Made by a program: the position numbers and the translations under genes. Below, one piece after another: positions 1 to 63,642 of a stretch of 64,000 nt of DNA. The notes below the pieces were generated by a model. The model was not told where the DNA came from, searched no databases, and worked only from the letters and a program-made list of their open reading frames with translations. How positions within the stretch are numbered: position 1 is the first letter of the stretch; each line of letters starts with the position of its first letter. The DNA is taken from assembly GCA_029775855.1 (NCBI GenBank), contig JARVJZ010000001.1, positions 64,001 to 128,000 of the forward strand. Reading direction: 5' to 3'. The DNA is from Nitrososphaeria archaeon. Lineage in GTDB: Archaea; Thermoproteota; Nitrososphaeria; Nitrososphaerales; JAAOZN01.

Positions 1-1410
1 AAGATTAAACCCAAGGCATTAATCCTCTCGGGAGGACCAGCAAGCGTCTATGATAAAGCAGCACCCCTTCCAGACCAAGCAATATACGATCTAGGGATAC
101 CAATACTAGGCATATGCTATGGTCTTCAAATCATAGTTCATCAATTAGGCGGTGAAGTTGTTAGAGCGAATAAGCGAGAATACGGGAAGGCTACACTCAA
201 CATAACAGATACATCTGACATATTCAAAGGGTTTAAACCTAAAGCGGTATGCTGGATGAGCCACGGCGATAGAGCTACAAAACTACCTATAGGCTTCAAA
301 TCTATTGCTCACACTGATAACTCGCCATATGCAGCCATAAGAGATAAAGCGCGAAAGATCTACGCCCTACAATTTCATCCAGAAGTTTCCCACACACCTA
401 GAGGCAAGAAGATCTTGAGGAACTTCCTCTTCGAAGTCTGCAAATGCAAAGCAAGCTGGGAAATGCCTTCTTTTATTGAACGCTCTATAGAGGAAATAAG
501 GGCTAAAGTAGGTTCAGAGAGGGTTCTCTGCGCATTAAGCGGGGGTATTGACTCTTCTACAACAGCAGCGCTCATACATAAAGCGGTAGGCGACCAGCTC
601 ACATGCATATTCGTAGATCACGGATTGCTTCGAAAGGGTGAAGCTGATGAAGTTATTCGAACATTCAGAGACACCCTAGGTATAAGATTGATAACTATAA
701 ATGCATCAAAAAGGTTCTTAGATAGATTAAAAGGTGTTGTTGATCCAGAGGAGAAAAGGAAGATAATAGGAGAAGAATTCTTAAATGTATTCACCGAAGC
801 AAGCATAAAATATGGTCCATTTAAATGGCTTGCACAAGGGACTCTATATCCAGATGTAATAGAATCAGCAGCAAACCAAAGTCCAGCTTCAAAGATAAAG
901 ACGCACCACAATGTAGGCGGTCTTCCTGAGCAGATAGAGTTCAAGCTGCTTGAACCCCTCAGAGACCTTTACAAAGATGAAGTTAGACGACTAGCAACCC
1001 TACTTGGGCTACCAGACAGAATAGTGAAAAGACATCCCTTCCCAGGACCAGGGTTAGCGGTCAGAGTTATAGGTGAGGTTACAGAAGAGAAGCTTCAAGT
1101 TTGCAGAGAAGCCAGCAGCATAGTTGAAGAAGAGCTTCAGAAACATAACCTTTACGATAAAGTGTGGCAAGCGTTTGCTGTGGTAGGAGACGATAAAGCT
1201 GTTGGGGTGCTTGGCGATGCTAGAAGCTACGGTTACATTGTTTCTGTGCGTATAGTTCAATCAAGCGACGCTATGACTGCAGACTGGGTTAAATTGCCTT
1301 ATAGGGTGCTTGAGAGGATAAGTAGCCGAATTACTAATGAAATACCCGGAGTAACTTGGGTCACATATGTGATCTCAAGTAAGCCGCCTGCAACGATAGA
1401 ACCCCAGTGA
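1..1410 (+). CDS. guaA: GMP synthase (glutamine-hydrolysing), 5'-truncated by window edge
   Basis: Frame is open from base 1 ([17 protein letters not shown]...GICYG), then QFHPEV, PP-loop [21 protein letters not shown] and terminal KPPATIE. Confidence 0.97.
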
Positions 1411-55427: not shown

Positions 55428-55744
55428 GGTGGCGGGGAGGGCTGGGAGGCTAGCCGTCTCCCGAACCTGAAAACGGCTATACGCAGGGGCCAGCAACCAT
55501 CAGGTAAAACACCATAACCGAAGCACCCGCCAACTAGATGGGAATGAAGCCGCGCTGCGGTGGGTAGCAGCAAGGAGCAACCCTCTCGAAGGAGAGGTGT
55601 TGACTCTCAACCGCCGAACCGGGTCAGGTCCGGGAGGGAGCAGCCCTAAGGCGGGGCTGTCTACGCTGCTGCATCTACGTGGTAGACTTCATCTGGTTGG
55701 AGATGGGGTTTGGCTGTGGTGTGAATTCTGGTGGAGCCGCCACC
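55428..55744 (+). ncRNA. ffs: Archaeal SRP (7S) RNA
   Basis: About 317 nt, GC-rich; termini GGTGGCG / CGCCACC pair; helix-8 signature GGGTCAGGTCC-GGGA-GGGAGCAGCCC with a GNRA loop. Confidence 0.93.
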
Positions 55745-60898: not shown

Positions 60899-60946
60899 AA
60901 GCAGTTTAAATTAGAGCAGAGCAATAGGGGGTATAGGCGGGGGCGC

Positions 60947-61106
60947 GCGGGGGTTAGTCCAAACACCCCCAACCCGAGCCAGGTCAAAGCCTTGAGTTAG
61001 GCGACAAAAGGGGGCAGAGCAAAAGCGCCTAAACTCAAGATCTGCTCGGTCAGCCGTTCGTGGGTTCAAAACCCTCTAGTAGAGGGTGAAACTCCCACCC
61101 CCCGCA
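60947..61106 (+). tRNA. tRNA-Leu(CAA) with four predicted BHB introns (9/10, 21/22, 30/31, 59/60)
   Basis: Removing 60956-60972, 60988-61008, 61018-61032 and 61071-61092 gives GCGGGGG TT CCCG AGCCAGGTCAA AGGG G GCAGA CT-CAA-GA TCTGC, a long variable arm, GTGGG TTCAAAT CCCAC CCCCCGC A; TTTAAATT box at 60905-60912. Confidence 0.85.
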
Positions 61107-61119
61107 CTAGTATTCTTAG

Positions 61120-62433
61120 CTAGGTTTGTTGATAGGGTTCTATTTTTAATATGGGTCCATCTTTTTGAATTACTTTTACTTTTTGCCCCTTGGTTATGTC
61201 TTGGTCTGAGGTTGCTTGCCAATATTCTGCTCCGCATCTCACTAAGCCAATCTTTCCCTTAGGTATATCTTCAACCGCAACACATACGCCGCCTACGATG
61301 TCTCCTATTGCTGGCGGTCTCTTTCTGGCTTGAATCACCTTATAGGCTGCAAATATGAAGAAGGCGCCGATAATCAACGGAGCCAATAGTGTGATTAGAA
61401 GTAGTTGATTTAGTAAGTCAGTTGAAACAAGCCACGGGCCGGTGGGCAGCGTTGGGAAGAGTAGTATCCCGCCGATTATTATGCAAGCAAAGCCGGCGCC
61501 GCCAAGCAACCCGAAGCCTGGTGTGAATAACTCAGCGAGAAGCAAAACCGCACCCAAAGCTATCAGCAGTATCCCACCTATGAATATTCCCGTTAAGCCA
61601 AGACCTATTAAGCCAAGTATAAGGCAGATACCTCCTATTACCTCGCTGCCGTAGCCTGGTGATGTTAACCCAAAGATTAGTGCGTAGAGTCCTGCAATAA
61701 AGAGTATATAGGATATTATTGGATCTGATAGAACCTTCAGGATCTGTAGTCTTAGACTTGGTTCCCACCACACAATCTTTAGCCCTTCTGTTTTGATTAC
61801 GTATTCTCCTTCAAGAAGTTCTACTTTGACCCCATCTATCATCTTAAGCAGTTCTTCAACGGAGTCAGCTACATACTCTATTACCCCCATCTTTTTCGCT
61901 TCTTCTGCTGAAAGGTTTAGGTTTTCTTTTATGAAGCGTGCCGCTGTAGTCTCATTTCTTCCGTGCATCCTTGCCTTTTCAACCAAAAATGTGGTTAAGG
62001 CGTTGATAGTTTTCGTGTCATTTATAGGTTGTGTGCCGCCTAAGGGGTTATAGGCTACTGGCTGGGCTGAACCTAGGATTGTGTGAGGCGCCATAGATGC
62101 TATATGTGTGGAGAGGAGGATGTATGTGCCTGCTGACCAAGCTCTAGCGCCCTTTGGGTAAACGTAGCCTATTACTGGCACGGTTGAGCGCTCTATTCTA
62201 TCTATTATCTTTATTGTAGCATCTAGATTCCCGCCTGGTGTATCAATTAATATTATAAGAGGAGTGTTAAGTGCTTCCGCTTCTCTTAGTGCTTCATCTA
62301 TTACCTCACTTGACATCGCGGTTATGGTTCCATCTACCTTTACTGCTATTATGTGGTCTGCTTTTGCTGAATATGCTGCGCCTAAAAGCGTTAATAGAAG
62401 AATAAATATTAGGGGTATCGCTTTCTTCAGCAC
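61120..62433 (-). CDS. nfeD: NfeD membrane-bound ClpP-class protease
   Basis: DTPGG, AWSAG, TM block, C-terminal OB fold (EYWQA); paired with slipin. Confidence 0.92.
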   Translation of the reverse strand: MLKKAIPLIFILLLTLLGAAYSAKADHIIAVKVDGTITAMSSEVIDEALREAEALNTPLIILIDTPGGNLDATIKIIDRIERSTVPVIGYVYPKGARAWSAGTYILLSTHIASMAPHTILGSAQPVAYNPLGGTQPINDTKTINALTTFLVEKARMHGRNETTAARFIKENLNLSAEEAKKMGVIEYVADSVEELLKMIDGVKVELLEGEYVIKTEGLKIVWWEPSLRLQILKVLSDPIISYILFIAGLYALIFGLTSPGYGSEVIGGICLILGLIGLGLTGIFIGGILLIALGAVLLLAELFTPGFGLLGGAGFACIIIGGILLFPTLPTGPWLVSTDLLNQLLLITLLAPLIIGAFFIFAAYKVIQARKRPPAIGDIVGGVCVAVEDIPKGKIGLVRCGAEYWQATSDQDITKGQKVKVIQKDGPILKIEPYQQT

Positions 62434-63230: not shown

Positions 63231-63570
63231 CTAAAACACTGCCAGTTACTTATTTTAGGCTGTAGATAAAAGTTACTAAAGTCTTTCTCACTTAGGCTCC
63301 ACATAGCAATATTATATGCTACAAGATTGCTGGTCTGCTGTGTGGTAAAGAGTTTCAGAGAGAGTGTTATGACTGTAGTAGAATTATCTATCTTGATTGT
63401 ACTAAAACTAGCTTGTCCCCGCGGGGTTTTGACGACTGCTATGAAGTCTTCCAAGCCATCGATACATAATGACGAATGGTAACCACAAGATACTAAGGGG
63501 AGCAGATAAGATTTGGAGAACTAAACCCTACCAATTCCAATTAAGAATTACAAGCTTAGCTCACAGTGTG

Positions 63571-63642
63571 AGGAGGGGGTGGGATTTGAACCCACGTGTA
63601 TCCGCTCTGCAGGCGGACGCGTAGCCGCTCCGCCACCCCTCC
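63571..63642 (-). tRNA. tRNA-Cys(GCA), intronless
   Basis: Minus strand: GGAGGGG...TCCGC-CT GCA GA-GCGGA...GTGGG TTCAAAT CCCAC CCCCTCC T; U73 discriminator; TTTATATA box at 63670-63677. Confidence 0.95.

Follow-up and report, generated by a model that had tools for sequence, protein, structure and literature searches.

A tRNA-Leu(CAA) gene with four putative non-canonical introns and a leader copy of its acceptor strand in a Nitrososphaeria archaeon

A short segment in the genome of a Nitrososphaeria archaeon, passed over by standard tRNA scanners, raises the question of whether a functional tRNA-Leu(CAA) gene can lie there in five pieces and, if so, how its precursor could fold and mature. 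The segment occupies positions 60947-61106 of the window, the 64,000-nucleotide (nt) stretch of DNA analyzed here (G000:C1:64001-128000, part of a 1.51-Mb assembly of six contigs with 43% G+C, rated 98.4% complete). Coordinates refer to the window unless prefixed G000 or C1-C6. An earlier note had proposed that four inserts hide a complete type II Leu(CAA) cloverleaf, and the coordinates and sequences it gave for the gene and its inserts match the DNA. The analysis supports a single Leu(CAA) gene with four non-canonical bulge-helix-bulge (BHB) introns, predicted at sites 9/10, 21/22, 30/31 and 59/60, with none at 37/38.

Scripted removal of the four inserts (Table 1) from 60947-61106 yielded an 85-nt molecule that ARAGORN called as tRNA-Leu(caa), with an acceptor stem of 7 bp, a D stem of 3 bp, anticodon and T stems of 5 bp each and a long variable arm. 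The length of that arm, the anticodon CAA, discriminator A73 and a Leu-like body identify the product as a class II tRNA-Leu. By contrast with the spliced molecule, the raw segment gave no call with ARAGORN, which found only a tRNA-Cys in the window. The Rfam tRNA model likewise had no match at 60947-61106, even with E values up to 10 on a 700-nt slice, and a genome-wide search with E up to 1 did not recover the locus. The comparison of raw and spliced sequence that the note had suggested thus went as it had foreseen, standard scanners missing the raw gene in the case of both ARAGORN and Rfam. All five exons are colinear inside 160 nt, so that the gene is neither split nor permuted.

The junctions were scored in a register comprising a 4-bp central helix, a 5′ bulge made of the last two exon nt and the first intron nt, and a 3′ bulge made of the last two intron nt and the first exon nt. 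In this register intron 1 forms GGGG/CCCC (4 of 4 pairs; inner helix 2 bp, outer 1 bp), intron 2 GGTC/GACA (3 of 4 pairs; inner helix GCCT/AGGC of 4 bp, outer 0), intron 3 GGGC/GCCT (4 of 4 pairs including one G-U; inner and outer helices of 2 bp each) and intron 4 TTCA/TGAA (4 of 4 pairs; inner helix 6 bp, outer 5 bp, the latter being the T stem). Only intron 4 has the full hBHBh′ motif, and each of the four has at least one flanking helix. The 4-bp central helix and two 3-nt bulges expected of an archaeal BHB of the EndA type are therefore present throughout, in relaxed form at intron 2. Scripted scoring bore out two further claims of the note, namely that the 3-nt bulges fall in the right register and that the central helix of intron 2 is imperfect. 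The spliced product is unchanged when intron 3 slides by 1 nt or intron 2 over 4 positions; it is the BHB register that picks 30/31 and 21/22 among these equivalent slides.

A brute-force search addressed chance. BHB-like segments of 10-50 nt with at least 3 of 4 central pairs and a flanking helix were collected, up to four of the 50 best candidates were removed in all non-overlapping combinations, and the survivors were passed to ARAGORN. The real strand gave 21 solutions, 17 of them Leu(caa) variants that include the proposed parse, have introns 3 and 4 in common and differ in introns 1 and 2. The same search yielded no tRNA in any of 40 dinucleotide shuffles and none on the reverse strand, which argues that the intron signal is real and not a product of chance. 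BHB scoring by itself leaves the boundaries of introns 1 and 2 open, and alignments to paralogues and orthologues were therefore needed; these single them out.

Within the same genome, the spliced Leu(CAA) aligns without gaps to two uninterrupted paralogues, Leu(TAG) at C1:294824-294909 and Leu(CAG) at C6:605-690. Identity to both is 25/27 over positions 1-27, a span that crosses junctions 1 and 2, and 29/29 over positions 57-85, across junction 4; the paralogues have the pair G10-C25 where the spliced molecule has C10-G25. Both also carry T8-T9, exactly as the 9/10 parse yields. Because of this and of the fit to the BHB register, a 9/10 boundary is favored over 8/9, which the note had likewise ranked as the less favored alternative. 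No second Leu(CAA) gene and no intact CAA anticodon arm was found elsewhere in the assembly, a point on which the note had called for a check.

Orthologues were sought in 61 relatives and then in 401 genomes of the order, 21 of which contain an interrupted Leu(CAA) gene. These comprise 3/3 genomes of family f1 in addition to the window genome, 1/9 of f4, 2/2 of f6 and 9/10 of f12, with further cases in f2, f3, f5, f8 and f11; three large families gave 0/97, 0/112 and 0/112. Twenty complete orthologues were parsed after L036 (truncated at a contig end) and L044 (a duplicate) had been dropped, and these relatives are not independent samples. All 20 splice to 85 nt with constant exon lengths, and introns 1 to 4 range over 16-23, 19-25, 11-17 and 22-31 nt, respectively. 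Where an intron is missing, its absence is nucleotide-exact at the boundaries given in the note. Intron-free orthologues that restore the tRNA exactly exist for introns 1, 2 and 4; intron 3 is carried by every orthologue, and its support comes from the paralogue alignment and from compensatory changes. Four introns occur together only in the window genome and its congener G001, three in G002, G003, G005, G008, G010 and G024, two in 11 genomes and one in G007. Among the four species of the genus the exons differ at 0/85 positions, and the introns show, against G001, 7 mismatches and 7 gap columns in 80 aligned columns. A pattern scan of the genome collection returned 16 loci with only one other four-intron copy (L053), which is identical to the gene of G001, and a search of metagenomes for T-arms of the Leu type interrupted at 59/60 returned 25 contigs, none holding a further four-intron Leu(CAA) copy.

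Compensatory change was found in both the mature and the intron-exon helices. In an exon-aware parse, 23 cloverleaf pairs in 20 sequences contained no non-pair, and double changes were seen at 7 pairs. A MAFFT alignment (A1), whose count omits the T stem since MAFFT misplaced the intron-4 gap, had 99.4% of cells paired and 5 pairs changed on both sides; two cells classed as "other" seem to reflect a shift of G007 by one alignment column. Its covariation score was reached by 0/500 shuffles, and sliding the partner lowered pairing to 33-60%. BHB central helices were paired in 88.6% of cells, compared with 29.8-57.6% when the partner was slid. Intron 3 keeps all 4 central pairs in 19/20 orthologues. 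Position 27 has gone from G to A in G061, and a matching change is seen in the intron strand (GGAC/GTTC) as well as at position 43 of the mature stem. G007 has the compensatory variant GGGT/ACCT, and exon 3 shows compensatory changes with exon 4 in both genomes. The intron 4 helix TTCA/TGAA becomes TTCG/CGAA in G005. Intron 1 has a paired central helix in 7/7 orthologues, with an inner helix of 5 bp, differing in sequence, in G008/G024 and in G010, and of 2-3 bp in the window's genus.

Table 1. Features of the tRNA-Leu(CAA) locus in window coordinates, with the occurrence of each intron among 20 orthologues
Feature	Coordinates	Strand	Length (nt)	tRNA positions or site	Description	Occurrence
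TATA-box-like element	60905-60911	+			TTTAAAT, ~26 nt upstream of the leader copy	Same alignment columns in 4/4 genus genomes (L001-L004)
Leader copy ("decoy") of acceptor 5′ strand	60937-60943	+			GCGGGGG, 10 nt upstream of the true 5′ end	
Exon 1	60947-60955	+	9	1-9		
Intron 1	60956-60972	+	17	9/10	Central helix of G4-G7 with CCCC	7/20 (window genome, G001-G003, G008, G010, G024; families f1, f6, f8); absent in 13
Exon 2	60973-60987	+	15	10-21	D-stem 5′ strand, D-loop	
Intron 2	60988-61008	+	21	21/22	Relaxed BHB (central 3/4, inner hairpin 4 bp)	19/20; absent in G007
Exon 3	61009-61017	+	9	22-30	D-stem 3′ strand, position 26, anticodon-stem 5′ strand	
Intron 3	61018-61032	+	15	30/31		20/20
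Exon 4	61033-61070	+	38	31-59	Anticodon CAA, variable arm, T-stem 5′ strand, most of T-loop	
Intron 4	61071-61092	+	22	59/60	Complete hBHBh′ motif	3/20 (window genome, G001, G005); absent in 17, including two congeners
Exon 5	61093-61106	+	14	60-73	T-stem 3′ strand, acceptor 3′ strand, discriminator A; CCA not encoded	

Two other accounts of the gene itself were weighed against this evidence. The same gene might be spliced differently, either with intron 1 at 8/9, leaving A9, or with the copy of the acceptor 5′ strand that lies upstream of the gene (Table 1) serving as the real exon 1 and the downstream copy falling within a longer intron. Position 9 is C, T or A in orthologues free of intron 1, so that A9 would be tolerated; brute-force parses that use the upstream copy do exist (introns starting at 60946-60948), and in G008, G010 and G024 that copy is followed by T, like the true position 8. 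Set against this are the T8-T9 of both uninterrupted paralogues and the 3-nt bulge register, which fits 9/10. In the window's genus, moreover, the nucleotide after the upstream copy is C, A or G and not the otherwise invariant T8. A 5-bp inner helix directly adjoins the downstream copy in G008, G010 and G024; for the upstream copy, a reading of these sequences by eye gives only ~1 bp. Alternative splicing of this kind is thus regarded as improbable. That the locus is a decaying pseudogene, or a chance cloverleaf created by selective excision, is more improbable still and can be given very little credence: it would be in keeping with the three relaxed motifs among the four and the many parses possible, but not with the failure of all 40 shuffles to yield a tRNA, the identity of exons in four species while introns diverge, the retention of an 85-nt product with compensatory changes in 20 orthologues or the lack of another Leu(CAA) gene in the assembly. 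Several observations nonetheless count against the proposed gene. The brute-force search produced 21 alternative parses in all, among them three 3-intron solutions, Leu(tag), Thr(agt) and one tRNA of undetermined identity, and one Leu(gag). Intron 2 has a non-standard first central pair in 17/19 orthologues and no outer helix. Of six RNA runs identified, four were compared with the locus: two metatranscriptome contig sets reach only the neighboring gene at 61110-61500 and two raw-read runs gave no matches, an outcome that does not amount to a test of expression or splicing.

The genome encodes enzymes suited to such a precursor. Two paralogues of the splicing endonuclease EndA (PF01974) are present as open reading frames of 185 and 180 amino acids, together with a gene for RtcB and an RNase P RNA at C2:289770-290051 (225 bits). 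The 185-residue EndA is closest to PDB chains 3p1z_B, 2cv8 and 2zyz_B, which we take to be catalytic subunits of crenarchaeal heterotetrameric EndA. The 180-residue paralogue is divergent and has only sub-threshold "subunit beta" matches. A heterotetramer would be expected to combine one catalytic paralogue with one structural paralogue of ~180 residues, and, with catalytic residues judged by eye, the pair may fit the alpha-beta type. Enzymes of this type are described, in the passages of PMC4090602 that deal with them, as broad in specificity and typical of Crenarchaeota, Thaumarchaeota and Nanoarchaeota.

Taken with the sequence comparisons, these genes make it very probable that 60947-61106 (+) is a functional, single-copy tRNA-Leu(CAA) gene, in which a leader-bearing precursor with four BHB introns matures to an 85-nt tRNA through EndA, RtcB and RNase P. 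A short-leader precursor of 160 nt plus the leader, with five exons and four short introns, would be cut in its 3-nt bulges by a two-subunit EndA of the alpha-beta type; RtcB would join the exons, RNase P would remove the leader, and CCA would be added post-transcriptionally, giving a class II tRNA that reads UUG. The gene structure with its boundaries, the conservation and covariation, and the enzyme genes are what was observed; cleavage itself, any order of intron removal and the roles of the two EndA paralogues are inferred. As to the start of the transcript, the TTTAAAT element is presumably a promoter element, in line with archaeal promoters generally, and would place initiation just upstream of the leader copy.

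How intron 1 could be recognized is a separate question, as its central helix needs G4-G7, nucleotides otherwise held by the G+C-rich acceptor stem. In 7/7 orthologues that carry intron 1, the 7 nt of the acceptor 5′ strand recur without mismatch 8-25 nt upstream of G1, and this copy matches the 3′ acceptor strand at 7/7 positions. The 13 orthologues that lack intron 1 have no such leader copy, their best upstream match being 5/7. When the precursors were folded without a leader, the true acceptor stem had a probability of 0.88-1.0 and the intron-1 helix 0. Inclusion of a 30-nt leader reduced true acceptor pairing to 0.03 or less in 7/7, and in the minimum free energy (MFE) folds of the window genome, G008 and G010 the leader copy paired with the 3′ acceptor strand. 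The exact intron-1 helix then reached a probability of 0.33-0.87 in G008, G010 and G024.

A second tRNA follows the same pattern. A scan for T-arms with two possible 5′ strands identified a tRNA-Gln(TTG) outside the window (L086, G000:C1:16901-17018, minus strand), which ARAGORN misreads as Gly(acc) with a 40-nt intron. It contains one intron of 17 nt at 10/11, with positions 5-8 taking part in the central helix, and a second in the D-arm/anticodon-stem region; its acceptor 5′ strand is repeated in tandem 9 nt upstream. Thirty Gln loci were collected from the 61 relatives and L095, at a contig edge, was dropped; the intron-bearing genes L088, L094 and L096, missed by the scripted pattern, were classed by eye. 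Among the 21 genes with a 10/11 intron, a leader copy pairs 7/7 with the 3′ strand in 18 and 6/7 in 3. None of the 8 genes without that intron, two of which are apparently the CTG isoacceptor, has a 7/7 copy, and three of them reach 6/7 only through scattered matches. Family f14 shows a concerted change of acceptor pair, leader copy (AGCCCCG) and intron strand, and within genus g18 G032 has intron and copy alike, and G020 lacks both. In 18 folded Gln genes, the leader raised the probability of the intron helix from 0.04 or less (17/18) to 0.43 or more (14/18). The Gln 10/11 intron is an independent second instance of the association of intron and leader copy.

With moderate confidence, and leaning slightly in its favor, we propose that the Leu leader copy pairs with the 3′ acceptor strand in the precursor. 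Occupation of that strand by the copy would leave the true G4-G7 free for the central helix of the intron-1 BHB; after splicing, the true strand would displace the copy and restore the acceptor stem, and RNase P would then cut, removing the copy. The broader proposal, that 5′-proximal introns in this order (9/10 in Leu, 10/11 in Gln) depend on a cis-acting folding switch of this kind, with strand exchange after splicing and loss of the copy to RNase P, is given about an even chance. Against both stand three results: the exact intron-1 helix does not exceed 0.05 in any of the four genomes of the window's genus even when the leader is included, and the helix predicted in its place is shifted by 1 nt; 4/18 folded Gln genes remain below 0.1 with the leader; and the association of copy and intron 1 in Leu may reflect one event, the kin being non-independent. 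The copy could also be a passive footprint of the way in which 5′-proximal introns arose, for example by local duplication, with no part in splicing. This is a real though lesser possibility, somewhat short of even. It would account for the copy always adjoining an intron-bearing 5′ end, and intron 2 resembles an inverted copy of neighboring sequence, which hints at intron-making local duplication in the lineage. It sits less well with a 7-mer that is kept intact while its spacing (8-25 nt in Leu, 8-20 nt in Gln) and flanks vary, with the concerted change in f14 and the joint presence or absence in g18, and with folds in which the copy is predicted to displace the true acceptor pairing.

The resemblance of intron 2 to its surroundings takes the form of ~13 nt (within 60988-61008) complementary to the tail of intron 3 and the anticodon loop (61025-61040). 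This complementarity exceeds that of shuffles in 11/19 orthologues (0/300 shuffles each) and is absent or weak in 8, and there are compensatory differences among the window genome, G010 and G024. As a candidate BHB the helix was rejected, the 3′ splice site of intron 3 being base-paired and the bulge spacing unfit; because it buries that splice site and competes with the intron 2 hairpin, it is not considered part of a BHB. It may impose an order on splicing, or it may be a relic of the birth of intron 2 through inverted copying of local sequence. MFE folds of the precursor also pair the D-arm exon (60973-60985) with the anticodon-stem 3′ strand and variable arm (61039-61049), and this pairing and the intron-2/intron-3 helix together form one long rod.

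Other interrupted tRNA genes were encountered during these searches. A Leu(TAA) gene on metagenome contig L081 (1366-1416 and upstream) has a 59/60 intron whose ends match those of intron 4; since the 3′ halves of the Leu isoacceptor genes are identical, it is suggested that intron 4 is shared or exchanged between them. Leu(TAA) genes on contigs L069, L083 and L085 measure 185-186 nt, ~100 nt above a mature class II tRNA, and probably carry three or more introns. In the window genome a hidden 136-nt gene at G000:C1:256791-256926 (+), Ile(GAT)-like by eye, shows three apparent introns near 21/22, 30/31 and in the variable region, two of these sites being common to Leu(CAA); its brute-force parse was ambiguous (200 solutions). 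Scanners also missed or misread an Asp(GTC) with a 59/60 intron (G000:C4:207338-207463, minus strand), a 143-nt interrupted class II gene (G000:C3:22792-22934, minus strand) and a Met(CAT) with one intron (G000:C5:155785-155875, plus strand), and ARAGORN reads a Ser-like interrupted gene at about G000:C4:138834-138970 (+) as a 96-nt Thr(agt). Elsewhere in the window are an archaeal signal recognition particle RNA at 55430-55742 (+; 135 bits), which marks the window as archaeal, and the uninterrupted tRNA-Cys(GCA) at 63570-63642 (-).

The genome-wide tRNA inventory is incomplete. The assembly yielded ~33 tRNA matches in all and no intact anticodon arm for either Leu(TAA) or Leu(GAG). A scan of G+C islands for hidden tRNAs was not selective (617 islands). 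Among 58 intergenic G+C-rich cores, brute-force intron removal applied to 21 unexplained ones solved 3, one of them highly ambiguous (200 solutions), and T-arm/acceptor scans added a few hidden tRNA genes.

With regard to known systems, passages of PMC4033280, PMC4390854, PMC3218864, PMC3293823 and PMC8450103, among them reviews from 2014-2015 and the 2021 paper on tRNAscan-SE 2.0, all put the archaeal maximum at three introns per tRNA. Known sites in PMC4090602 include 30/31 and 59/60, with 3/4 as an extreme, and 9/10 is not listed in the text examined. The multi-intron archaeal tRNAs described resemble Leu(CAA) in their short BHB or relaxed-BHB introns at non-canonical positions, in hosts with a two-subunit EndA, as may be the case here, and in the trouble they give scanners. 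They differ in having three introns and not four and in their lineage (Thermoproteales, as against a Nitrososphaeria-like one), and Leu(CAA) has no 37/38 intron and a 9/10 intron that uses acceptor-stem nucleotides together with a leader copy. From a related lineage come the multi-intron tRNAs of Caldiarchaeum subterraneum, including tRNA-Leu(UAA), with introns in the D-, V- and T-arms; the relevant passages of PMC3293823 name three introns as the highest number known and describe neither a four-intron gene nor a leader copy. A bioRxiv preprint of October 2026 reports, in its main text, up to five introns per tRNA gene in Asgard archaea, with a few insertions in the acceptor or at junctions. 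These genes, too, have several non-canonical introns, many in the D-arm, are missed by annotators and show repeated gains among relatives, but they belong to another phylum, and the word "leader" has 0 occurrences in that main text. The suggestion in the note that four introns might be unreported thus stands with respect to the classical maximum of three and not as an archaeal record, because the preprint reports up to five. Literature searches on four-intron archaeal tRNAs, Thaumarchaeota tRNA introns and leader/acceptor duplication returned nothing further; as far as the literature searched goes, the gene would exceed the classical maximum, would be new for its lineage and would have a leader copy without previous description. 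In split and permuted tRNA genes, as presented in passages of PMC3218864 and PMC4390854, leader sequences also help to form the structure that EndA recognizes. Unlike these, Leu(CAA) has colinear exons at one locus, and the copy is proposed to sit on the 3′ acceptor strand and not in a BHB.

Archaeal tRNA genes with several introns are a test of how far a small structured RNA gene may be broken up and of how EndA finds its sites. With four introns, none of them canonical, and two exons of 9 nt, Leu(CAA) would extend such heavy interruption to a Nitrososphaeria-like lineage, and its orthologues with one, two, three and four introns form a dated series of gains or losses of introns inside a single order, and even inside a single genus. 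As only ~33 tRNA matches were seen, tRNAs are likely to be undercounted when gene content or codon usage is inferred for metagenome-assembled genomes of this kind. A leader copy that co-occurs and co-varies with 5′-proximal introns in two different tRNAs offers a testable answer to how a BHB can form when half of it is locked in a seven-bp, G+C-rich acceptor stem. If correct, it would represent a previously undescribed class of pre-tRNA leader element and would explain how introns persist within sequence that the acceptor stem would otherwise lock up.

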